The notes beneath the pieces are model-generated. The model saw nothing but the letters and a program-made list of their open reading frames with translations, did not search any database and was not told where the DNA came from. 64,000 nucleotides of DNA, from positions 1 through 64,000 of the IMG/VR virus record IMGVR_UViG_3300022891_000002. One strand, given 5' to 3'. Shown piece after piece: positions 30,144 through 64,000 of the stretch; position 1 is the stretch's first letter; each line of letters begins with the position of its first letter. Both the position numbers and the translations under genes were made by a program. The stretch is from a virus.

Positions 30144-31772
30144 ATGGCAACAAATAACCGAAAAATAGAAAAGAAACTTCAATCAATAGATGAGCAAATA
30201 GAGTTCTTACTTAATCAACAGAAATATGTAAACGCTTCTAACTCGCTTTATCAGTTTCTCAAAGTTGGGTTTGAACATAAAGAAGTAAATGAGTTTAGAG
30301 ATAGTAGATTGGCTCAAGCTCTTTGTGAACATTTAGAAGCAGTAATGAGAGGAGAAATAAAAAGATTAATTATCAATATATCTCCTAGAACAATGAAGAC
30401 TCTGCTTACTGGAGTTTACTTTCCTGCTTATTGGTGGTTGAAGAAACCTCATCTTCAATTTATTTACTGTAGTTATACATTTGGAATTGCTAAGGTTTGT
30501 TCTCAAAAATTTAGAGGATTGGTTCAACATGATTTCTATAGAGATGTTCAAAATACTATGGAAAGTTTAGTAGATGACCCAATTACTCTTATTGAAAATA
30601 ATGAAAGTTTTCTACTAAATAATTATCAAGGAAGTAGAGATACAGTAGGTATTTCGGGAACTATCACTGGTAAAGGTGCGGACGTAATTATCTTAGATGA
30701 CCCGTTAAAAGCTAGTGAAGCTAAATCTAAGAAGGTTAACTCAAGAACTAACGAGTTTATTGGGGAAACTTTAATGTCTCGTTTTAATAGAACAAGTCAA
30801 GAAAAAGTTCTTATCTTGATTCAGCAAAGATTAAAAGAAGATGATACTTCTGGATTTTTAAGAGAGATGGGAGGATTTGATATTTTAGAACTTCCTCTTC
30901 TCTACACGGGAATGTCTAACTCTATTACTAAATTAGGCTTTAAAGATTGGAGAAAGAAACCAGGTGAAATCTTAGTTCCTGAGCTAGTAACAATGGATGA
31001 AGTAGCTCGAATGGAAATAGAGATGGGGTCACTTGAATTTGAGAGGCAATGTCAGCAAAACGTTAGAGCAGCAGCCGGAAATATTATATCTAGCAAACAT
31101 TTTAAAGAATATCAGAATGCTCCTCCTTATGAGTCTTATATCTTAGCAGCAGATTTAGCTGAGTCTATTGAGGAGGATGCGTGTTATACCGGGATAGTTA
31201 TTTTTGGTATCTATGAGAATAAGTATTATGTAGTAGAAGTAATAGAAAAGAAACTTAGATTTGAAGACCAACTATTAGAAGTAAAGAATCTACTAATTAA
31301 ATATCCATCTTGCAGACATAAGTTAGTAGAAAAGAAAAGTATGGGGCCTGCTTTGGTAGCTACATTATCTAAGGAATATCCGGGTTTTATTGCTCTTGAA
31401 CCTAAAGATTACGGTAATCAAAAAGAAGCTAGACTCAAAGCTACTATTCCAGCATTCAGAGATGGTAAGATTTATTTTCCTACTAAAGAGAGCTGTGAAA
31501 AGATTACTACTCTTAAAGACCAGCTAACTACTTTTCCTCTTTGTAGAAATGATGATGTGATGGATGCGTTCTGTTATGGAGTTCTTTGGTTGGAGAGGAA
31601 TGAAAGAGTTATTGACACTACTGAGGTTATGATGGAAATACCTGAACATATAAAAGAAAGAAGAAATATCTTTGCTGATACTTCCTCTCCTCGTCAGTCT
31701 ATTTTTGGTAGTAGATTAGGTAATCCTAGTTCTGATTTCGTAAAGTCTAATGGTATAGATATATTCTTTTAA
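30144..31772 (+). CDS. terL: terminase large subunit
   Basis: RLIINISPRTMKT Walker A, GADVIILDDP Walker B, QQRLKEDD, nuclease AADLA / VEKKSMG / NDDVMDA. Confidence 0.93.
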   Translation: MATNNRKIEKKLQSIDEQIEFLLNQQKYVNASNSLYQFLKVGFEHKEVNEFRDSRLAQALCEHLEAVMRGEIKRLIINISPRTMKTLLTGVYFPAYWWLKKPHLQFIYCSYTFGIAKVCSQKFRGLVQHDFYRDVQNTMESLVDDPITLIENNESFLLNNYQGSRDTVGISGTITGKGADVIILDDPLKASEAKSKKVNSRTNEFIGETLMSRFNRTSQEKVLILIQQRLKEDDTSGFLREMGGFDILELPLLYTGMSNSITKLGFKDWRKKPGEILVPELVTMDEVARMEIEMGSLEFERQCQQNVRAAAGNIISSKHFKEYQNAPPYESYILAADLAESIEEDACYTGIVIFGIYENKYYVVEVIEKKLRFEDQLLEVKNLLIKYPSCRHKLVEKKSMGPALVATLSKEYPGFIALEPKDYGNQKEARLKATIPAFRDGKIYFPTKESCEKITTLKDQLTTFPLCRNDDVMDAFCYGVLWLERNERVIDTTEVMMEIPEHIKERRNIFADTSSPRQSIFGSRLGNPSSDFVKSNGIDIFF

Positions 31773-40451: not shown

Positions 40452-41618
40452 ATGAGTCACGTCGCTAGTTTTTTTAATGAACCTTTTATCAATAAGCAGA
40501 TTAATGCTATTGTTGATGAAACACATCGAGATTTACTCAAACGAGATAAGTTAATCGATGAAGCAATGCCAACCCAGACGTTTGAAACTAGAAACTTCAT
40601 GGCGTTGTTAACTTCCCGTATTGCTCCTGCTGCTAGAGTAGTTGCTTGGGGTGCAGAGATTCCCGTTACTCGTCATGGAGGATTTGAGAAAGTTACAGCT
40701 CAGCTTACTAAACTTGCTTTATCTCACAGATATGATGAAGAAGATATGTGGGCATTGTCTGAAGCTTATCAACTAGCTGGTTATATGTGGAATAAGATTC
40801 AAACTATCCACAAGCCAGATGGAACTGTTCAACGAGGAGCTAATGATGACCTTGCTACAGCTTTATTTGGGGATGTCCAACAACTATTAGACGGTATGGT
40901 AGATAGAATGGACATGATGAAGTGGCAGGCAATATCTACTGGTGCATTAAACATCGAAGATATGTCTACTGGAGTTAAGTTTGAGATTGATTATAAGAAG
41001 TCAGACGCACCTTACAATCATTTTCCTCTACCTTTAGTTGCTACTGGTAATACTGTTACCCCTACTCTTAATAAGTGGAGTGATAAACAGAATGCTGATG
41101 GTTTCCGCAATATCCAAGATTTAACAGATATCTACGAAGATACTAACGGTTTCTTGCCAGATAAGATTGTGATGAACCGCAAACTTTGGAATATGTTCTT
41201 AGACCAGAAATCCACTAAGGAAGCTGCTCGTGCAATGACTACCTCAGAAATTGGTTTAGTTTCTAGAGATATGGCAGATGAACTATTGCGTAGACGTAAG
41301 TTACCTCCTGTAGTAGAGTTTGGTGAAAAGTATCATGAAGAAGTTCCAGGTGGAGAAGCTGTTACCGCTAATTTCTTGAACGATAATCGTCTAGTATTTC
41401 TCAAGAATAAGATGGGTATCTCAGCAATTGGCCCTACTATGGAATCTAAGACTAACATTATTTCTAGTGGTAAAGATATTCCTAAGATTAAGACTGGTAT
41501 TTACTTAGATATCTACACTGAAAACGGTCGCCCTCCTAATGATGTAGTAGCAACAGTAGCTAGCTTTATTCCTATAATCATGAATCCTAAACTTCTGATG
41601 GCACAAACAGTAAATTAA
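40452..41618 (+). CDS. major capsid protein (lambda gpE-like HK97 fold)
   Basis: APAARVVAWGAEIP, RMDMMKWQAISTG, KWSD, PDKIVMN motifs; size and position. Confidence 0.85.
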   Translation: MSHVASFFNEPFINKQINAIVDETHRDLLKRDKLIDEAMPTQTFETRNFMALLTSRIAPAARVVAWGAEIPVTRHGGFEKVTAQLTKLALSHRYDEEDMWALSEAYQLAGYMWNKIQTIHKPDGTVQRGANDDLATALFGDVQQLLDGMVDRMDMMKWQAISTGALNIEDMSTGVKFEIDYKKSDAPYNHFPLPLVATGNTVTPTLNKWSDKQNADGFRNIQDLTDIYEDTNGFLPDKIVMNRKLWNMFLDQKSTKEAARAMTTSEIGLVSRDMADELLRRRKLPPVVEFGEKYHEEVPGGEAVTANFLNDNRLVFLKNKMGISAIGPTMESKTNIISSGKDIPKIKTGIYLDIYTENGRPPNDVVATVASFIPIIMNPKLLMAQTVN

Positions 41619-41624
41619 AAAAAT

Positions 41625-42077
41625 ATGAGACAATATATTCTCCACAAAACTTTTAGAGATAGAACTGGTAACTTTTATTGGGCTAGAACAGCTCCATATC
41701 CAGAGGGAGAACTACCTGAAAATATTACTAAAGACCCGACTAAAGTATCTATTATTGAAACTGATACTCATGTTGCAGAATCGGTTCTAATTACTCCTGT
41801 TCAAGAAATTAGGAACTTAACTCCTGCTGCTGAACATCTCATACCCCTAACTCCTCAATTTGTAGAAGCTACTCCTGTTATTACTACTAAGATAGATGTT
41901 AATACTGCTTCTATTGAAGATATTAAAAACGTTAAAGGAATAGCAGAGAAAACAGCAACTTTGATTGTAAGTAATAGACCTTATGAAAGTATGGCTGACC
42001 TTACTACTAGAGTTAAACCACCTTTGGGTAAAACTTGGAGTGATTTTCCATTTAAATACGGCTCAACTCCAGAGTAA
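41625..42077 (+). CDS. helix-hairpin-helix (ComEA-like) DNA-binding protein
   Basis: KIDVNTASIEDIKNVKGIAEKTATLIVSNRPYESMADL. Confidence 0.8.
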   Translation: MRQYILHKTFRDRTGNFYWARTAPYPEGELPENITKDPTKVSIIETDTHVAESVLITPVQEIRNLTPAAEHLIPLTPQFVEATPVITTKIDVNTASIEDIKNVKGIAEKTATLIVSNRPYESMADLTTRVKPPLGKTWSDFPFKYGSTPE

Positions 42078-42990: not shown

Positions 42991-43752
42991 ATGACTAAGC
43001 TAAGAATTATTAACAGAACTCCTTTAAAGAGTCGTGCAATTCCATTTATTGAACTACAGCCTAAATATCTTTATTGGCTAGACACTGGTAAAGAGATTGA
43101 TGTAGAAATTCTAAAAGAGAAAGATGGACATTATGAAGTAAAGCTGTCTACTAATTTTGAGAATTCTCCAGTAGGTATTCGCTCTTGGTTTATCTATAAA
43201 GAACACGTTCAAGTAGTAGAAGATAAGAAAAAGAAAGTATCTAAGAATGTACTTAAGACTGATTACTATTATCAATTAGATAATAGTTACCAACCTTATA
43301 CATCTTGTTTTCTTACTTGTGTAGCGATGTTACTATCTTTCTATAAAGTTAAGGTAACTCCTGACCAACTCTATAACAAGTGTCGTGATTTAGGATACGA
43401 CAGATTTTCTGGGGAAGGTATTGTAGCTATCCTTAAAAACTATGGGGTTAATTATCACTATACTACTTCTGGTACTGCTCAAGATTTAAAAGATACTGTT
43501 ACCAAGGCTCCTGTAATCTTAGGCACCTATCTAACTGAAGCTAGCCACATTGTGTTAGTAGTTGGCTATGACGAAACTGCTTATGATGGTCGTGGAGCTT
43601 TTATAGTCAATGACCCCTATGGAGAGTTTACTCATAACGGCTATATCCACACTCCTACAGCCGGCAAAAATACACTTTATTCTTTCTCTTTAATTGCTCA
43701 AGTTGGCGCACCTGAAGGAGACGGAAATTACTGGCTACATCTTCCAGTTTAA
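42991..43752 (+). CDS. endolysin, C39-like cysteine peptidase with cyanobacterial-type N-terminal domain
   Basis: YYYQLDN..SCFLTCVAM (Cys), SHIVLVVGYD (His), FIVNDPYG; N-terminal TPLK...GHYEV...WFIYKEHV. Confidence 0.75.
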   Translation: MTKLRIINRTPLKSRAIPFIELQPKYLYWLDTGKEIDVEILKEKDGHYEVKLSTNFENSPVGIRSWFIYKEHVQVVEDKKKKVSKNVLKTDYYYQLDNSYQPYTSCFLTCVAMLLSFYKVKVTPDQLYNKCRDLGYDRFSGEGIVAILKNYGVNYHYTTSGTAQDLKDTVTKAPVILGTYLTEASHIVLVVGYDETAYDGRGAFIVNDPYGEFTHNGYIHTPTAGKNTLYSFSLIAQVGAPEGDGNYWLHLPV

Positions 43753-43757
43753 TTATT

Positions 43758-44033
43758 ATGAGAGAAAAAATGAAACGTTCGTTATATCTAAGTAAAACTT
43801 TTCTATTTGGTGTAGCTCTTTGGTTATCAGTTGCTTATGTACCAGTAGTTAATTGGATCTATGATGGTAAGTTAACTAAAGATGATTTTACGAGTCTTAT
43901 ACTTTCTACTGTTGGATTATTTGGTATTTCTAATGGAAGACTAAGAGTTAATGAAGATATTAAGAAAAGTGCAGAAACAGGAATTCCAGTTGGTCTACTT
44001 ACTCCAAGAGTAGCCCCAAAAGCAAAAGAATAA
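43758..44033 (+). CDS. putative holin
   Basis: two TM helices, SLYLSKTFLFG, MREKMK possible dual start, next to endolysin. Confidence 0.65.
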   Translation: MREKMKRSLYLSKTFLFGVALWLSVAYVPVVNWIYDGKLTKDDFTSLILSTVGLFGISNGRLRVNEDIKKSAETGIPVGLLTPRVAPKAKE

Positions 44034-44039
44034 AATGAA

Positions 44040-45599
44040 ATGGTTGTATTTTCTGTATTATTTGAGAATGTTGAGGGAGAGTATTATTACCGATATATAA
44101 GTGATAGTATTACGTATTATCTCCCTTCTTATAGGATTGATAGGTTAGATAAGCCAATCAGTAGTTTTATCAATGTTCAAGGGCCGATGTATGCTGAATC
44201 CGTTTATAAGTTCTTAGATAAAGTTTTTGAGACAGGGGAGAATATTGGTGATTTTGTTGTTACTGACCCAAGAAGTGAAAAAGAGATATCTCTAACTTTA
44301 TTTGGCTATAAGTATCTCAACTTTGTTATTTTAGTTGGTAGTCAAAAGTCTGATAGTTTACTAGAAAGCACTTTATTTAAAGAGAACTATTTATTTCTGA
44401 TTCAATGGACAGGTTCAAAAGAAGAGTTGGTAGATGATATTTCTGATAATGTAGTAAGTTTACTTGAATATACAAAACCAGAGATACTCGCAAAATCTTA
44501 CATTTCTTTTATTAATCCTGAAGATGTTCTTTCTTTTAAATCGGAATTAATTACTTACTTAGATAAAGGTACAGCGTCTTTCTATCAAAAATATAGATTA
44601 GTTAGTAAGTCAGGTAAAGATATAACTGTTCTTGACCATACTTGTAGAATTCTTAGAGAGGAGAAAGTAGTTACTATTAGCTATTTGAGAGACATTACTA
44701 AAGATGAGTTAATGTCTACTAAATTAGCTGAACTAGCTTTATTAGATGAAGAGAATTTTAATACTAGCTTACTTATAAAAATTGAATGGGATAGAAATTT
44801 TAACATTACGAGATGGAACAATCAAGCAGAAAATTTACTTGGTTGGGATAAATCAATATTAGGAAAGAATATTAGAGATACTCACCTTTTTAATTCAGAA
44901 GATACCACTACAATACAAGGTCAGATTGAAAGAATACTTAACCACAAATCTGAATTAGTAATTAGTAACTTTAGAGTAAATAAAAAAGATGGTAATCAGC
45001 TAGACATTAAATGTTCTAACAGGCTTGCTATTCGAGAAGGGGAACTTAGAGTTATTTCTTCTATTATTGACAGAAGTGAAGAAGCTTCTTTAACCACTCG
45101 CTTAGTAGAAATGGAGGAAAGGTCAGACTTATTGCTTAAAACTCTTTATTCTACTAATACTAACTTTAACAATGATGTGTTTAAAAAACTTGTAGATACT
45201 CCTTTGACTTCTAGCTCTGAAGGTTTAATTAAAGCTGAGATTATTATCAGAAAGATAGAAGAAGAGTTGAAGAGACTTAATGATACTATTTTTCACAATA
45301 ACGGTAACAACTTACTTAGTGAAGTAGCTAATCTCAAATATGATGTCAAAGACCTAAAAGAAGATGTTAATAGAGTTAAAGATAGTCAAGCTAAATTATC
45401 TTCTGAACTTAACGACTTACTTAATATTAATATTCTTAGTTTAAGTAAAAATTTAAACTTTAAAAATTTAACAGGATTGCTTGTAATTAGTTATGTAGTG
45501 TTTGGGATATTGTTTCCGGCTTTGTATCATAATCTAGCTAAACCTTATCTTATTCAATACAATAAAGAACTTAAACAAATAGAAGGTAAAAAAGATTAA
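44040..45599 (+). CDS. tandem PAS-domain protein with coiled coil and C-terminal TM helix
   Basis: LLEYTKPEI..FINPED..YRLVSKSG..LRDIT and IEWD..ITRWNNQAENLLGW..KKDG..IDRSE; no kinase or GGDEF output domain. Confidence 0.8.
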   Translation: MVVFSVLFENVEGEYYYRYISDSITYYLPSYRIDRLDKPISSFINVQGPMYAESVYKFLDKVFETGENIGDFVVTDPRSEKEISLTLFGYKYLNFVILVGSQKSDSLLESTLFKENYLFLIQWTGSKEELVDDISDNVVSLLEYTKPEILAKSYISFINPEDVLSFKSELITYLDKGTASFYQKYRLVSKSGKDITVLDHTCRILREEKVVTISYLRDITKDELMSTKLAELALLDEENFNTSLLIKIEWDRNFNITRWNNQAENLLGWDKSILGKNIRDTHLFNSEDTTTIQGQIERILNHKSELVISNFRVNKKDGNQLDIKCSNRLAIREGELRVISSIIDRSEEASLTTRLVEMEERSDLLLKTLYSTNTNFNNDVFKKLVDTPLTSSSEGLIKAEIIIRKIEEELKRLNDTIFHNNGNNLLSEVANLKYDVKDLKEDVNRVKDSQAKLSSELNDLLNINILSLSKNLNFKNLTGLLVISYVVFGILFPALYHNLAKPYLIQYNKELKQIEGKKD

Positions 45600-45601
45600 T
45601 T

Positions 45602-45952
45602 ATGTGGCGACCTTTTGACAGTCCAGCTAAAAAAAGAAAAAGATTTATAGAAAAAAACAGTCCTTATTTAGTTCCATTAGCAGTTGGAGGATTGGCAGCT
45701 ATGGGAGATGAAAATGCTTCAGTTAGACAAAGACTTAAAAGAGGAATGGTTACAGGAGGTCAGACTTTTGCAGCTATGAAGACCGCAGGAGTATTTGCTA
45801 ATAACGCAAGTAAGAAGAATTATTATAAAAATACTATTCTACCAACTGTTCAACAAGCTAGAGGAATTGCTAATACCGGACTGAACATTAAAAAAGATAT
45901 TAGAGCTGCTACTAGGTTTGATTTTTGGAAAAAGAAGAAAGGAATTATATGA
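45602..45952 (+). CDS. small basic protein with hydrophobic Gly/Ala helix
   Basis: YLVPLAVGGLAAMG..SVRQRLKRG; KKKK tail. Confidence 0.55.
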   Translation: MWRPFDSPAKKRKRFIEKNSPYLVPLAVGGLAAMGDENASVRQRLKRGMVTGGQTFAAMKTAGVFANNASKKNYYKNTILPTVQQARGIANTGLNIKKDIRAATRFDFWKKKKGII

Positions 45953-57136: not shown

Positions 57137-60100
57137 ATGGATACTTCAAGCAATATTAAATTTAATGTTGAGGGAGATGATAAACTCTCTCAGTTCTTAG
57201 AAAAAACTCAAAAATCATTTAAAGAGCTTAACGAGAAATCTCTTAGGTTATTTAATACTGGCTTGGGAGAAGGTTCTAAAAATTTAAAAGATATTACTAA
57301 ACAGTTCCAAAACAAAAAGAGTATAGTAGATAGTTTAGTTAAAGATTACGGTAAAGCTACGGCTGCTACTAATGATTGGACTGCTTCTTTAGGTAAGTTA
57401 ACTAAAACCACTGCATTATTAGGAAGAGCTTTAAATGCACTAAATATTGCCTCTATTGGCTCTGGAGTAGTTAAAACGGTTAGTACCGGAGTAGCAGAAA
57501 TCTTAGAGGCAGTAACACTTACTCAGACTGGTTTGAATACCATGGCTGCTTCTGGTTTTGATGGTACACCTTTAATGAATTCTTTAGGGGAAATTACTGC
57601 TGTTTTAACGGGTAACAGTCAGGCAATAGAAAGCTTTTCAGCAAGGTCTTCTGCTGCTTTTAACGCATTTGAACAGAAACTAAATGAAGTTAACATTGTA
57701 TTTGGATTGTCTCAAGAAAGATTATCTGAATATGGGGACTCCCTACAAAACGGTTTAGAGAAGAATCTTAAAAATAGTGTAGGTTCTCTTACTGCTCTTA
57801 ATGCTGCCTATCAAGCTGCTAGTGCCGGATTTACTGAATTCCAACAAAACCAAGATGTTGTTAACCTAGCAATTAAAGCTAATAAAGCAGCCCCGGGAAG
57901 TGACCTATTCCAGATTGGTGGAGCTATTGGTAAAGGTGCAGGTATTCTTGAAACTAGAGATATTGCAGAATTAGAAGAAGTAACTGCTAAATGGCTGGCT
58001 ACTGAACAACTAGGTCTTACTACTGTAGGAGACATGACTGAGTATATTTCAGATATGTACAGCTCCCTTAAAAATGCAGGTATCGGTACCAATGACCTGG
58101 TTAATGAGACTCAAGGTTTGGTAGTAGCATTTACTAAGTTAGGTGGCAAAGTTACTGACATCTCAACAGAAATGCAAGCCTTCGCTCGTAACACTATTGG
58201 TAAAACTCCTGAAGCAATGAAAGCTTTAGAAGGATTGGTAGATGCACAGGGGAAAGCAATTACTCTCAACCAAGAATATTTTGGTAGAAAAGGAGTTGTT
58301 CAGGGTATAGTTGACTTTGCTGAAGCAGTTGGCTATAACACTGAGAAAATTAAGGAAGTTTATAACGAGACTAATGCTTTCAACTTTGCAATGAAGGTCT
58401 TAGCTCAAAACGGTAATCTTGCTAAGAAATCTATTGAGGATATTAGTCAAGTAACTTCTGAGAATTTAACTGAAGCTTTTGATTCTGCTACTTCTTCGTC
58501 TCAAGCAAAAATGGAACAAATCACAAATGCTTATGATGAGATAATGATTTCGTTTGGTAAAGCGTTCCAAAAGAGAACTGAGGAAGGTGTTAAATCTGTT
58601 GAGTGGTACAAAGAAGTTTTAGTTAAATTCAAAGAGCCATTAGTAGAAATAGCTGAACGCATGGTTAATTTCTATGATGGTTTAGGTAAGATAACTGGAA
58701 CTCTTGGCGCGTTAGCTAAGATGTTGTTTGGTATTGCCGGAACTATTATTTCTTTTAGAGCTTGGGGATTAGTTTTAGGAGGAATTACTAACGGCTTTAA
58801 AGATTTAAGAAAGGAAGGGTCAGTAATAAAAGAACTCTACCAATCAAATCAAGGTTTATTAGCTATCGGTAAACAAGTTCTTGGGTTAGACCAGCAAAAA
58901 CTTCTAAGTCAAAATAGAATTAATGAAGCAATTAAAAACTCTGCTACTTTAGAGAAAGAGCTTAGTAACTCTATTGGTAAGTCTAGTGCTGATAGATTAA
59001 ATAATATCGGAGTAATTAAAGAAGAGATAGACTCAATTGTTGCTCGTGACCAATCAATTATCAAAGGTCAACAGAACGTAACTAAAGTAGAAGAATCTCT
59101 TAAAAGTAAAACAGATAAACGAGATAGTCAACAGTCCGACGTTACAAATACTCAGAAAAGCTTAGCTAATCTTAAAGTTCTTAAACAAGATATAGATAAC
59201 ACATTTAAAGACAATGTAGAGAATACTAAAAGGTCGGTTCGATTACAAGAAATAGCTACTGAACAATCTGCAATTACACAGCGAAAAGCTAGTAAAGAAG
59301 ATTTAAAAAGATATGTGGAGCTTAATACTGAAAAGCTAAGACTTCAAGATACTTATAACAAAACTACTCTTGACCAATTATCTTCTCTAGAAAAACAGAA
59401 ATCTATTCTTAATAATAAATCTAGAAAGTCAGAAAGAGATTATGCAGCTTTAGATAAACTCAATACAAGAGAGACTCAATTACTTGATAGGGAAAGAACT
59501 AAAGATAGAACTCCTTTAACTCAAGATAAAAGAAACGAGCTAAATAATACTCGTAAAGATGTTGTTACTAAAATAGGTCAAGAAGAATTAGTTCTATTAA
59601 CTCAGAGACAAAAGTTACAAGAAGCTAACAACATAGTAGATAAAGAAACTGAAAAATTAAATAAAGCTAAAACCGACCAAGCTGAAAAACTTAATAGAGT
59701 TACTAAGACTACTACTGAATTAGCTGTTCTTCAACAAGACCTCAATACTAAGAAAAATACTTTAGATAGAGTTAATATTGCTTTTGAAGGTCAGCAACAG
59801 AAACTTTATACAATTCAAAATGCTTTAAGAAAAGAACAAACTACTTTAGATAAGATAAGAAATAAAGATAGTGTAGAATACTTACAACAACAGAAGAAGG
59901 TACTGACTCTACAAGTAGAAGAAGCTAAACAACTTTCTACTGTCCAAAGTGCTAGAACTACTCAACAAGCAGCACAACAAACTTATAACAAAGCAGAGTT
60001 TGAGAGTAAAAGAAAATCTATTCAGCTAACTAGAGAACAAGGACTAGCTGAAGGTACTCTTATTGAGATGAGAACTCGTTCAGGTTCAGTTGCCCTTAAA

Positions 60101-63100
60101 AATAATGCGTTTAATAGAGCTTTAATTGCTACTAATGAAGGTCTTACTAAATCTTTTAAAGCAATAGCTACTCCTGCTCAATCTTTTACCAGCATTCAAG
60201 ATACTCTTAGCAATAAGATGGCTGACTTGAGAAGTAATATTGGTCAAATAGGAACGGTAGCTAGTAGAAGTTTTACAGGAATGGCTGCTTCTGCTCAAAC
60301 TACTTTTGCTTCTATCGGAACCTCTGCTGCCTTAATGGGTGAAACTATCAAAGCTGCTTTTATTTCTACAGGTATAGGTCTATTAATTGGGGCCGTAATA
60401 GCATTAGGAGCTAAACTATTTCAAGTTGGTCAAGCTTCTGCAAAATTAGATAAAACTTATAAAGACTTTAATGTAACTCTTGAAGACTCTGCTACTAAAT
60501 TTGATAGAGCAAATATCTCTTTTGACAATAGCGTTCAAGGACTTAATAAGTTCAGTGACAGACTAGAAGCTTCTAAAAAGTTAATGGCAGATGTGGACAC
60601 TACTGTCTTTGATGACTTAGGTAATGGAATTAAAGGTGCTGTTGGAGGAATAGTAGATTTTGTAAAGACTGCTACTGGACTTAAACTGTTAGACCCTTTA
60701 TTTGCAAATATTGGTGAAAGAATCTCAGCCATTTGGACTAGCTTTTCAGACGCAGAATTCATTAAACGTTCTGCTAAAATGACTCAAATATCAGATTTTA
60801 TTCAAACTTATGAGTTAGCTCTTAGAGGACAAAATAAAGAATTAGCAAACGGAAACCTATTAACTGAAACTTCTAATCAAAAGATTAAAGCTCGGATGAT
60901 TTTGACTGGCGAGGATTTAGAGCGAGAAAAAGCTGCTAATACCGCTAGAATTGATTCGTTCCAGTCTATGACAGATATTCAAAAGAAAGAGTTAGAAGAG
61001 TTAAAAGGTAAAGGGGACAAGCTAAACGAAAGAGATAAACAACAAATTGCTTTATTAGAATCAGAAATTTCTAGACGTGAAAAAGTAATAGAAGTAAGTA
61101 AAAAACAATTTGAAGACCAACTCAAGTATTATGAAGCTCGTAACCTTTTATTAGATAGAGAGAACAAGTTTAGTAATACTCAAGTATCTTTAGAAGAAAT
61201 TAAGAGTTTACAAGGACAAGTTAATTCTTCTCAAACTGCTCTTAACACTAATATTTCAGAAGGTTTAGACATTTATTCTGCGTCTATTAAAGATTCTTCT
61301 GTTAAATCTAAGCAATTCTTATCTGACCTTAAAGATGGGAGTTTAAGCGTAAAAGCCACTCTTAAAGGTCTGGGTGGAGAAATCTATAAAGTTGGAGAAG
61401 ATGGTAAAGTTCTATCTAAATTGCCAGATACAGTTCTTAAATCTATTGAAACAGTTCTTAAAGGTAAAGAGATAGATGGTAAGAAATATACGTTAGAGCA
61501 AGTTCTAGGTCTTAAAGAAACTAGAGATGCGTTAACTGAGGCAGGAGTAGAAATACCTAAAGACCTTTCTGTTCTTGCTGATAAAATGCGTAAGAGCTAT
61601 GAAGAATCTGAAGGTCAAATCAAACTTATCAATCTCAAAGACCTTGAAAAAGATTTAGCTGATTTTAGTGTTTTATCAGATAAGTATCAAGAGAAGAAAA
61701 GACAGTTTCTATCCACAACTAAAGATGATGTTGGTGCTACTGCATTTTCTACTTCTCTTAAGAAATCTCTGAGGTTAGCAGAAACAGATTTACAGTCTTT
61801 CCTAAACGCTCTAGATTCGTCTTCTAAGGGCTTGAATAAGTATGTGACTGCTTCTACTAATAAATTCACTAAAGAAGCCTTAGATGGAACATTAGACCTT
61901 ACTGAAGGCTTAAAGGAGCTAGGTCAGGTAGAAAGTGAAATTAAAACTGAGCAGTTAGATAAACTTAAAGCTGCTATTACCGGAAAGAACAAAGATGAGA
62001 TTTTAGTAGCTCTTAAAGAGATTGGAGTAGAAACTGAAAAAGCTCTTACAGCAGATTCAATTGATTTCAATAAGTTTGAAGAGAACTTGGGAATGTATGT
62101 TGAATCTTTAAATGCAGTTGCAGAAAGTGGAGAAGCTACAAGTGAAGAAATAGCTAAGAAGTTTGAGAATGTCTACAACCAAATGAAAGGTAGAGTTACT
62201 CCGGCTGCCTACAAAGATTTAACTGAGACTCTAATTGGTTATGAAAAAGCGGCTTCGGAACAACGAATCAGCTATATTGGAATGGAAACTTCTGCTCTTG
62301 AACAACAGAAGAAATATGGATTCTTACTAGAAACAGATTATATAGAGCAAATTAATAAACTCAATATTCAAACTTCTGAAGAAAATATTAAGAATAAGAA
62401 AATAGAACTAGCTAGGTTACTTACTTTATACAAAGAATCAGCTCCTCAAGTAGTTAAAGCTAAAGCAGAATTAGAAGCTCTCGAACTGAATCTTTCAAGT
62501 CAAAAGTCCAATAATCCCGTAGAAATTGCTAAAGCTCAAAGCAAAGAAAGATTTGATACTTTAAAGAAAGAACTTGAACTAGGAACTATAACTAGGAGAC
62601 AGTTTATTGAAGAAGAACTCAAAGATTCTAGAACTCTTTATGAAACTCAGCTAGTAGAAAAACAAAAAACTCTTACGGAATTACTAAAAGATGAAGTTAA
62701 AAATGCTAAAGCTATCAAAGCTCTTCGTAAATCTATGGAGTCAGATGAGCAAGACTTTAACTTAAATCTATTAGAAATTAACAGAAGGAGAATAGAAGAA
62801 CAATTTAAGCTACAAACTAATGCTTTAGGTAAGAGAGAGCTTGAAGCTAGAAAAGACGCTCTTAACGGAAATACTAAAGAGGAACTTGAATCTGTCCGTA
62901 AATTAGAAACAGATAAGATTGCTCTAAACATTCAGACTTTAGAAGCTAGGTTAGCAGTAGAAAAACAAGGAAGTGAGAAGTTCTTAGAAATAGAGAAACA
63001 GTTATCAGAAGCTCGACTATCTTTACAAGAAACTCAAGTTAAACAATCTAAAGATAGAACTAATGAAGAGATTGAGAGAAAGAAAAGTGAGTTAAACACT

Positions 63101-64000
63101 ATAGCTGCTCTTGAAGAACGCAACAATATTCGTGGTACTAGCAATAAAAGTCTTGAGAATACTCGTCAACTAAGAGAGAAAGAAGTTCAGTTATCTATTG
63201 ATTCTATTAACTCCCAAATTGCTCTGACTGAAAAAGGAAGTAAGGAAAGGTTAGCTCTTGAACAACAGTTAGTTCTCGAAGTTAATAAGTTACAGAAGAC
63301 TCAATTTGATAACCAGAAAGAAAGACTAGAACAATCCTTAGAAGATAGACGTAAAAAGTTAGAAGCTAAACAAATGGATTTAGAGAAGAATTCTATTAAA
63401 GGTACTACTGATGAAGATATTGAAGCTAGCAGAAAGTTAAAAGAAGAGGAAATCAATTCTACTATTGAAACTCTTAAGCAAAGGTCAGCTCTGTATCGTG
63501 AAGGTAGCAAAGAGAGAGTTGCTCTTGAACAAGAAATAGCTAAAGAAACTCTTAGGTTAGATAAGCAAGTCTATGAAAATCAAAAGTCTAGATTACAGAC
63601 TCAAATAGATAACAAGAAGAAAGCTTTTAAGGATAGTCAACTAGCTCTAGAAAAACTTTTGGTACTTGGAACCTCTACTGAAGATTCTAAGAAAGTTCGT
63701 GCATCTAAAGAGCAAGAAATTCAACTGACTATTGAAGGTATTAAACAAGAAATTAACTTAACTAAAGCGGGTTCTACTCAAAGAAAAGACTTAGAACGTA
63801 GCTTAAGAGAAGAGTTACTTAAGTTAGATAAACAAAGAATAGCAAATAAGAGAGATTTAATCGATGAAGAGATATCTTTAGAAAAAACTAAGATTACTAA
63901 AATCCAGTCTCTACTTGAACGTTCTACTATTGGCGGAACTTTTGAGAAAGATTTAGAAAAGATAAGAGAACTTAAAGTCAAGGAAACTCAAATTGTAATT
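57137..64000 (+). CDS. tape measure protein, partial (>2280 aa, runs off window)
   Basis: ATG 57137 MDTSSNIKFNVEGDD; AAYQAASAGF core motif, hydrophobic central segments, long coiled coil; presumably absent from ORF track because it has no stop in the window. Confidence 0.85.
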   Translation, partial: MDTSSNIKFNVEGDDKLSQFLEKTQKSFKELNEKSLRLFNTGLGEGSKNLKDITKQFQNKKSIVDSLVKDYGKATAATNDWTASLGKLTKTTALLGRALNALNIASIGSGVVKTVSTGVAEILEAVTLTQTGLNTMAASGFDGTPLMNSLGEITAVLTGNSQAIESFSARSSAAFNAFEQKLNEVNIVFGLSQERLSEYGDSLQNGLEKNLKNSVGSLTALNAAYQAASAGFTEFQQNQDVVNLAIKANKAAPGSDLFQIGGAIGKGAGILETRDIAELEEVTAKWLATEQLGLTTVGDMTEYISDMYSSLKNAGIGTNDLVNETQGLVVAFTKLGGKVTDISTEMQAFARNTIGKTPEAMKALEGLVDAQGKAITLNQEYFGRKGVVQGIVDFAEAVGYNTEKIKEVYNETNAFNFAMKVLAQNGNLAKKSIEDISQVTSENLTEAFDSATSSSQAKMEQITNAYDEIMISFGKAFQKRTEEGVKSVEWYKEVLVKFKEPLVEIAERMVNFYDGLGKITGTLGALAKMLFGIAGTIISFRAWGLVLGGITNGFKDLRKEGSVIKELYQSNQGLLAIGKQVLGLDQQKLLSQNRINEAIKNSATLEKELSNSIGKSSADRLNNIGVIKEEIDSIVARDQSIIKGQQNVTKVEESLKSKTDKRDSQQSDVTNTQKSLANLKVLKQDIDNTFKDNVENTKRSVRLQEIATEQSAITQRKASKEDLKRYVELNTEKLRLQDTYNKTTLDQLSSLEKQKSILNNKSRKSERDYAALDKLNTRETQLLDRERTKDRTPLTQDKRNELNNTRKDVVTKIGQEELVLLTQRQKLQEANNIVDKETEKLNKAKTDQAEKLNRVTKTTTELAVLQQDLNTKKNTLDRVNIAFEGQQQKLYTIQNALRKEQTTLDKIRNKDSVEYLQQQKKVLTLQVEEAKQLSTVQSARTTQQAAQQTYNKAEFESKRKSIQLTREQGLAEGTLIEMRTRSGSVALKNNAFNRALIATNEGLTKSFKAIATPAQSFTSIQDTLSNKMADLRSNIGQIGTVASRSFTGMAASAQTTFASIGTSAALMGETIKAAFISTGIGLLIGAVIALGAKLFQVGQASAKLDKTYKDFNVTLEDSATKFDRANISFDNSVQGLNKFSDRLEASKKLMADVDTTVFDDLGNGIKGAVGGIVDFVKTATGLKLLDPLFANIGERISAIWTSFSDAEFIKRSAKMTQISDFIQTYELALRGQNKELANGNLLTETSNQKIKARMILTGEDLEREKAANTARIDSFQSMTDIQKKELEELKGKGDKLNERDKQQIALLESEISRREKVIEVSKKQFEDQLKYYEARNLLLDRENKFSNTQVSLEEIKSLQGQVNSSQTALNTNISEGLDIYSASIKDSSVKSKQFLSDLKDGSLSVKATLKGLGGEIYKVGEDGKVLSKLPDTVLKSIETVLKGKEIDGKKYTLEQVLGLKETRDALTEAGVEIPKDLSVLADKMRKSYEESEGQIKLINLKDLEKDLADFSVLSDKYQEKKRQFLSTTKDDVGATAFSTSLKKSLRLAETDLQSFLNALDSSSKGLNKYVTASTNKFTKEALDGTLDLTEGLKELGQVESEIKTEQLDKLKAAITGKNKDEILVALKEIGVETEKALTADSIDFNKFEENLGMYVESLNAVAESGEATSEEIAKKFENVYNQMKGRVTPAAYKDLTETLIGYEKAASEQRISYIGMETSALEQQKKYGFLLETDYIEQINKLNIQTSEENIKNKKIELARLLTLYKESAPQVVKAKAELEALELNLSSQKSNNPVEIAKAQSKERFDTLKKELELGTITRRQFIEEELKDSRTLYETQLVEKQKTLTELLKDEVKNAKAIKALRKSMESDEQDFNLNLLEINRRRIEEQFKLQTNALGKRELEARKDALNGNTKEELESVRKLETDKIALNIQTLEARLAVEKQGSEKFLEIEKQLSEARLSLQETQVKQSKDRTNEEIERKKSELNTIAALEERNNIRGTSNKSLENTRQLREKEVQLSIDSINSQIALTEKGSKERLALEQQLVLEVNKLQKTQFDNQKERLEQSLEDRRKKLEAKQMDLEKNSIKGTTDEDIEASRKLKEEEINSTIETLKQRSALYREGSKERVALEQEIAKETLRLDKQVYENQKSRLQTQIDNKKKAFKDSQLALEKLLVLGTSTEDSKKVRASKEQEIQLTIEGIKQEINLTKAGSTQRKDLERSLREELLKLDKQRIANKRDLIDEEISLEKTKITKIQSLLERSTIGGTFEKDLEKIRELKVKETQIVI

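Follow-up and report, generated by a model that had tools for sequence, protein, structure and literature searches.

A tail-anchored triple-PAS protein encoded after a holin-like gene in the late operon of a probable cyanophage, tentatively read as an accessory lysis regulator

The moment of lysis sets the burst size and the fitness of a phage. To our knowledge, lysis timing in the phages studied so far is governed by the accumulation of holin and by a few small antiholins, none of which carries a general sensor domain. XhlA of PBSX and BhlA, proteins of 70–90 aa from phages with Firmicutes hosts, are encoded in lysis cassettes, lack sensor domains and share a layout in which a coiled coil precedes one transmembrane (TM) helix; the TM helix of BhlA lies at the N-terminus. 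The releasin gp25 of phage Mu (DUF2730) is a 99-aa protein with an N-terminal TM helix (N-out, C-in), which acts on a SAR endolysin and is needed for normal lysis (PMC9239132). The T4 antiholins RI (periplasmic) and RIII (cytoplasmic) are reported to bind the holin T and to shift lysis timing on a signal (PMC8385771, PMC11413866). In mycobacteriophage, a two-TM protein of about 88 aa (LysF1a, N-in/C-in) and a single-TM protein (LysF1b) both shape lysis timing, according to a preprint (bioRxiv 10.64898/2025.12.04.692442). On the sensor side, PpsR (4hh2), FixL (8js5) and DosP (9cmf) contain tandem or triple PAS arrays with canonical inter-PAS linker helices and end in HTH, kinase or c-di-GMP outputs.

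The gene studied here lies in the first 64 kb (the window, that is, the whole stretch of DNA analysed) of a 150,360-bp record of an uncultured virus. The final 100 bases of the record (150225-150360 region) are identical to bases 37-136. This overlap of the ends suggests that the genome is circular or terminally redundant and probably complete, despite a CheckV completeness of 49%. Relatives occur on contigs of 308-325 kb, which may be concatemers. The host is probably a cyanobacterium, as judged from sequence comparison, since all GenBank phage records with a homologue of the peptidase described below (32/32) are cyanophages and the closest relatives of the capsid protein, at 28% identity, are from Pseudanabaena phages. 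These results support the cyanobacterial setting that the initial annotation had assumed.

The PAS gene is the third of three genes (Table 1) within a long plus-strand late operon, with the capsid gene (40452..41618) upstream and a Mu Gp36-like (head-completion) gene and a fibre gene downstream. A lysis cassette in the middle of a head-to-tail structural operon would be in an unusual position. Leader-tagged Gly-zipper genes, which may encode packaged proteins, surround the three-gene row. Immediately 3′ of the capsid gene, a 150-aa protein (41625-42077) that is kept in the relatives contains a helix-hairpin-helix motif (HHH_3, 3.9e-8) and also has a weaker PsbU match (7e-5), which at 23.2 bits stays below the cut-off of 24.5 bits. 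Further downstream, a 3228-aa ORF (57137-64000, running on to genome position 66823) had no match in Pfam at E 0.001; it presumably encodes a tape measure or a giant tail protein. The structural genes are split, since a match to a Mu-type portal (PF06074, 4.8e-13; phrog_113) falls within genome 66.8-113.8 kb (loci L010-L012 and L015-L017), distant from both the capsid gene and the terminase gene (30144..31772).

Table 1. Features of the three-gene row and of the PAS protein, in window coordinates.
Feature	Position	Strand	Basis
Peptidase_C39_2 protein, 253 aa, all-beta N-terminal domain; probable soluble endolysin	42991..43752	+	Pfam, PHROG
Holin-like small membrane protein of 91 aa (class II layout)	43758..44033	+	TM topology
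Triple-PAS, coiled-coil, tail-anchored protein, 519 aa	44040..45599	+	ORF, Pfam, AF2, Foldseek
N-terminal PAS-like fold, aromatic-rich, lineage-specific, residues 1-105	44040..44354	+	AF2, Foldseek
PAS-A (PAS_3 type), residues 119-218	44394..44693	+	Pfam PAS_3; invariant columns
PAS-B (PAS_9/PAS type), residues 246-344	44775..45071	+	Pfam PAS_9 and PAS; AF2 pLDDT 76-90
Cytoplasmic helical region, residues 345-461	45072..45422	+	Conservation, heptads, linker alignment
Single C-terminal TM helix, residues 477-499	45468..45536	+	KD 2.25; AF2 helix 474-516
20-residue tail after the TM helix	45537-45596	+	

The first gene of the row encodes a member of the Peptidase_C39_2 family, as seen from an HMM score above the cut-off (PF13529, 3.6e-16, 60.5 bits against 24) together with an intact Cys-His-Asp triad, whose residues C106, H186 and D208 are invariant in seven homologues. 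It also matched phrog_10051 'endolysin' (2.4e-21). Peptidase_C39_2 is a catalogued catalytic domain of endolysins (PMC5017753), and many cyanophage homologues, several of them from Synechococcus phages, are annotated as endolysin. The best of the 32 phage matches is to Microcoleus phage My-WqHQDG, with 33% identity along 96% of the protein. The peptidase is thus a probable endolysin. No relatives were detected in 185,579 prokaryote genomes, and a sequence search against the PDB gave no match; the AF2 model (pLDDT 49.8) was too poor for fold comparison. The protein has no TM, SAR or signal segment and no hydrophobic N-terminus; because it lacks a TM or SAR segment, it would need a holin. To survey lysis genes, every other ORF of at least 50 aa was compared with PHROGs, and ORFs of at least 100 aa also with Pfam, two of the PHROG lists comprising the best 25 of 29 and the best 25 of 28 families. 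Among the matches listed, no other peptidoglycan hydrolase or lysin, holin or spanin family was found in the 150-kb genome, whose one cell-wall hydrolase recognisable by Pfam and PHROG is this peptidase. In the cyanopodovirus Arthronema virus TR020 (L026, 2480-2992), the gene of a C39-type 'putative cysteine protease' homologous to the peptidase stands between the capsid and tail-tubular genes, so that a peptidase inside a structural module recurs in a second cyanophage lineage.

The second gene, separated from the peptidase gene by 5 nt, encodes a 91-aa protein with a basic N-terminus, a clear first TM segment (residues 16-34, KD 1.78), a weaker second hydrophobic stretch (about 44-60, KD about 1.3 by hand count) and a conserved charged C-terminal tail. 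The criteria for class II holins quoted in PMC9096620 are 65-95 aa, two TM segments, a charged C-terminus and a position beside the endolysin gene. Against these, the proteins of the family have 82-95 aa, a clear TM1, a weak TM2 and a charged tail, and the gene adjoins the peptidase gene in 8/10 loci and is one gene away in the other two. Two in-frame Met codons, 3-4 codons apart, occur at this gene in 8/10 loci and resemble a holin dual start, with an inconsistent charge difference between the two forms. The protein matched no Pfam or PHROG family and no holin family, and its 57 homologues all fall within this phage lineage. We regard it as a holin-like protein, a putative holin. The initial annotation had placed the PAS gene directly after an endolysin and a holin; the position holds, and the two identities are predictions, the former from C39_2 and phrog_10051 and the latter from topology. 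In Microcoleus phage My-WqHQDG, the peptidase gene is followed by that of a 106-aa two-TM protein, and there is no PAS gene. Because the peptidase there has only a two-TM neighbour, the PAS gene looks to have been added to a pair of lysis genes; the hhalign probability between the 91-aa and 106-aa proteins was 22%, which does not establish homology.

The PAS ORF begins with ATG at 44040, six bases (aatgaa) after the TAA stop of the 91-aa ORF (44031-44033), exactly as first reported. The gene is real and under purifying selection (dN/dS 0.10-0.13). We found 33 full-length homologues of 513-520 aa (50-87% identity); a 29-sequence family alignment was used for AF2 and for motif inspection.

Pfam analysis confirmed the two PAS domains of the initial annotation, with PAS_3 at residues 134-206 (E 1.4e-11, 45 bits against a gathering cut-off of 25.6) and, in the second unit, PAS_9 at residues 252-346 (E 6.7e-9, 36.4 bits against 27) and PAS at residues 248-335 (5.9e-8, 33.2 bits against 22.6). 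The absence of an output domain was borne out as well, since Pfam gave no kinase, cyclase, HTH or other output family anywhere on the 519-aa protein. What had been overlooked was a third PAS-like fold at the N-terminus. The AF2 model (29-sequence alignment; mean pLDDT 68.6, PAS cores 75-90) contains three units of PAS topology, a five-stranded antiparallel sheet with flanking helices, at residues 1-102, 119-218 and 246-344. The first unit, with the order beta-beta-alpha-alpha-beta-beta-beta (E-E-H-H-E-E-E), has no Pfam match and is known from the model only, at pLDDT 53-86. Foldseek retrieved the triple-PAS protein PpsR as the best match (alignment spanning 381 columns), followed by the tandem PAS of FixL and DosP, with E values from 1e-13 to 1e-15. 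These folds and the Pfam scores above curated cut-offs place the protein in the PAS domain superfamily.

The protein carries no cofactor signature. Sequence searches of the PDB returned weak matches to PER/ARNT-type PAS domains as the closest for PAS-A, and only such matches and coiled-coil noise for the whole protein. Because these matches are generic, no cofactor can be inferred from them. In PAS-A, D199, H200 and C202 are invariant and lie on one beta strand (family alignment and AF2), and this D199-H200-x-C202 element is only a candidate ligand site. The flavin-adduct cysteine motif of LOV domains, GXNCRFLQ, was absent from 29/29 aligned sequences on inspection, and membership of the LOV photoreceptors was rejected.

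Downstream of the PAS units, the AF2 model comprises helices at 345-371, 378-386, 393-419 and 425-461, and a final helix at 474-516. Segment 357-369 aligns with the canonical linker helix between PAS units of multi-PAS sensors, and, because it is an ordinary inter-PAS linker, the sensor part derives from a multi-PAS array. A degenerate histidine-kinase DHp at this segment was rejected for the same reason, as was a sensor histidine kinase, Pfam giving no HisKA/DHp or HATPase_c. The C-terminal 130 residues, by contrast with this derived part, are new as far as sequence comparison reaches. The hydrophobic occupancy of heptad a/d positions (100% in helix 393-419 and 91% in helix 425-461) and the Kyte-Doolittle mean of 2.25 over residues 477-495 corroborated the coiled coil and single C-terminal TM helix noted at the outset. 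The protein has no N-terminal signal; a C-terminal TM helix without such a signal implies a tail-anchored protein with about 476 residues predicted to be cytoplasmic. Conservation peaks at residues 393-426 (0.90), against 0.66-0.70 for the PAS domains and 0.58 for the TM helix.

When a profile was run against 1.84 billion representative proteins, all 27,227 matches were PAS proteins. Among the best 150 of these, only one fragment and the representative of the family itself matched the N-terminal domain or the C-terminal region, and the remaining matches covered positions 106-385 only. The family was absent from the 185,579 prokaryote genomes searched and had zero matches in 50,697 GenBank phage records; its PAS regions matched no PHROG family. 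No standalone short version of residues 345-519 was found, and an ESM Atlas search with the C-terminal part gave no usable match. Neither the PAS protein nor the 91-aa protein has relatives beyond this phage lineage that sequence searches could detect. Among isolated phages, PAS domains are hardly known.

The order peptidase, small TM protein, PAS protein was observed in 10/10 related loci, down to 50% identity, so the linkage to lysis-type genes, for which the initial annotation had proposed a synteny survey, is kept throughout, within one lineage. The PAS gene directly follows the small TM gene in 9/10 loci. In the tenth (L022:4669-5001), an extra 110-aa gene, encoding an N-terminal TM segment and a coiled coil, lies between the two and may be a further lysis accessory. 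The slots flanking the pair vary and accept unrelated insertions in the relatives. In L004 and L021, a leader-tagged Gly-zipper gene lies between the peptidase and small TM genes (L004:7308-7721 and L021:902-1465); the two inserted genes share an N-terminal leader and have a Gly-zipper/basic tail. The slot after the PAS gene (window 45602-45952) holds either a 116-140-aa protein or a leader-type protein of 71-172 aa. A spanin was rejected, as neither a signal nor a TM segment occurs at the N-terminus of the PAS protein, and the next gene is variable (71-172 aa, two unrelated types) and has no lipobox. Elsewhere in the structural operon of L022, an IS605 OrfB/TnpB (Cas12f1-like TNB) gene (L022:1477-2697) is inserted between the HHH protein gene and a 141-aa gene. 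Because all ten loci come from colinear genomes of a single lineage, the linkage, although real, amounts to one evolutionary observation and weighs little. A promoter and terminator scan of 36-52 kb gave no signal between the three genes and, with fewer sites than in shuffles, was uninformative.

Comparison of pairwise-identity matrices revealed that the peptidase and the PAS-protein parts diverged together (r 0.66-0.88), whereas the divergence of the small gene was uncorrelated with that of any PAS-protein part (r 0.13-0.27). The history of the small gene differs from the one that is common to the peptidase and every part of the PAS protein, which points to repeated exchange of small-gene alleles independently of the flanking genes. 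Two allele types of the small gene, about 55% identical, were distinguished (43758-44033 together with L003-L008 and L020-L022). As the supposed partners do not co-vary, any binding interface between them must use invariant cytoplasmic segments.

How, then, does the PAS protein compare with the described systems? The initial annotation had likened it to XhlA/BhlA-type holin-like proteins. The resemblance in layout stands, since residues 393-499 fit that of XhlA, in a protein six times longer and with no short standalone form found; family membership does not. Searched against XhlA (PF10779, cut-off 34.7 bits), the C-terminal parts of three of four diverged homologues scored 7.0-11.8 bits, comparable to generic coiled-coil families, and that of the fourth gave no match, as did a six-frame search of the genome. 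Like Mu gp25, the protein is predicted to be a membrane-tethered, mostly cytoplasmic non-holin with almost no periplasmic part, encoded near a probable endolysin. It differs in its C-terminal anchor, its cytoplasmic part of about 476 aa and its three PAS-like folds, gp25 having neither PAS domain nor coiled coil, and the peptidase here, unlike the SAR partner of gp25, has no SAR segment. Membership of the Mu releasins was rejected on the C-terminal position of the TM helix and the lack of a DUF2730 match at E up to 10. With T4 RI and RIII, the proposed likeness is one of analogy, namely a separate phage protein that would bind the holin, in the case of RIII from the cytoplasmic side; those antiholins are small, have no general sensor domain, respond to superinfection and share no sequence or fold relation with the PAS protein. 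By its description, the LysF1a/LysF1b pair likewise sets a two-TM small protein beside a single-TM protein, although LysF1b has an N-terminal TM helix, lacks sensor domains and comes from a phage of an actinobacterial host. The protein shares with PpsR, FixL and DosP the PAS array and its linker helices, whereas it ends in a coiled coil and an anchor. PHROG and Pfam gave no homology to known holins, antiholins, XhlA or releasin. Taken together, the protein belongs to the PAS superfamily only and at most works like an antiholin or a releasin, analogous in logic to T4 RIII/RI and Mu releasin and unrelated to them. Precedents for such lysis-regulator logic exist, as cytoplasmic or membrane-tethered regulators are known (PMC9239132, PMC8385771, PMC11413866).

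Our best explanation, put forward tentatively and with somewhat less than even confidence, is that the PAS protein is a membrane-tethered cytoplasmic sensor that modulates the triggering of the holin, an accessory lysis regulator. It would be synthesized late, presumably together with the soluble C39_2 endolysin and the class-II-like holin; its C-terminal helix would insert into the cytoplasmic membrane, leaving the three PAS-like domains and the coiled coil in the cytoplasm, and the protein would probably be dimeric. It could contact the holin through its TM helix, the juxtamembrane helices 393-426 or both, the conserved cytoplasmic tail of the holin being a plausible target. The state of the PAS domains, set perhaps by a ligand, redox or energy status, might then delay or promote hole formation. 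Holins of the lambda type fire when the membrane is de-energised; for this reason, a redox or energy sensor could guard against darkness in a phototrophic host, or exploit it. The more specific version, in which the triple-PAS array reads the redox, energy or light-dependent state of the host and the coiled coil and anchor hold or release the holin, is rather unlikely as it stands.

Architecture, topology logic, purifying selection, position and the absence of other lysis genes among the matches listed are observed; gene position and topology are what point to lysis timing, a role that the protein may have. In the predicted topology, the PAS domains and the conserved tail of the holin lie on the same cytoplasmic side, and the protein is most conserved in the juxtamembrane helices and not in its PAS domains. 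Against a lysis role stand the location inside a head-to-tail structural operon, the absence of co-variation between the PAS protein and its small TM neighbour and the gene that separates the pair in L022, and PAS domains can also be plain interaction modules. The first two of these points also lend weight to another reading, which we consider possible if somewhat doubtful, that the protein is a membrane-tethered PAS protein unrelated to lysis and its holin-like neighbour an accident of a compact late operon. It might, for example, detect a host factor at the membrane or sequester it there (takeover, regulation), or organise late assembly at that site. The embedding of the genes between the capsid gene and the head-completion and fibre genes, the unrelated insertions in neighbouring slots of relatives and the generic nature of PAS plus coiled-coil layouts all agree with such a role. 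However, the place after the small TM gene is retained in all loci but the one with an insertion although the flanking slots vary, and, among the matches listed, there are no further lysis genes in the genome to mark a separate cassette.

C39 peptidases classically cut leader peptides, as established for bacteriocin exporters. The block could accordingly be a packaged and ejected protein set instead of a lysis cassette, with the peptidase trimming the N-terminal leaders of its neighbours or cutting the wall at entry as a virion-borne enzyme, and the two membrane proteins acting at DNA entry. That classical activity, the leader-tagged Gly-zipper genes on both sides (inserted after the peptidase in two relatives) and the location of the TR020 homologue would suit this idea. 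We nevertheless judge it improbable, as the PAS protein has no leader, a cytoplasmic sensor array of 476 residues is hard to fit into a virion, the phage would be otherwise without a recognisable endolysin among the matches listed, and the peptidase domain and its cyanophage homologues are catalogued or annotated as endolysin (for the domain, in PMC5017753). Least probable of all, and by our estimate very improbable, is that the PAS protein itself forms the pore as a giant XhlA-like or holin-like protein, with the 91-aa protein as antiholin or helper. Its coiled coil and C-terminal TM helix reproduce the XhlA layout, and weak coiled-coil matches were obtained (phrog_1193 'hemolysin', E 0.072; XhlA, E 0.28-8.8); yet these scores are far under the cut-offs and no better than those of unrelated coiled-coil families, conservation in the TM helix (0.58) is among the lowest in the protein, and no standalone short C-terminal module was found.

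If the more specific reading, in which the sensor directly gates the holin, is true, a cyanophage would lyse its host only when physiological conditions are favourable, and its lysis clock would be the first to have a general-purpose sensor domain of its own. The conserved, strongly selected triple-PAS protein is a concrete candidate for linking light, redox or energy to the moment of lysis, a link that bears on the diel virus-host dynamics of cyanobacteria. Should the link to lysis prove wrong, the protein would still be unusual as a tail-anchored sensor encoded in the late operon of a phage.
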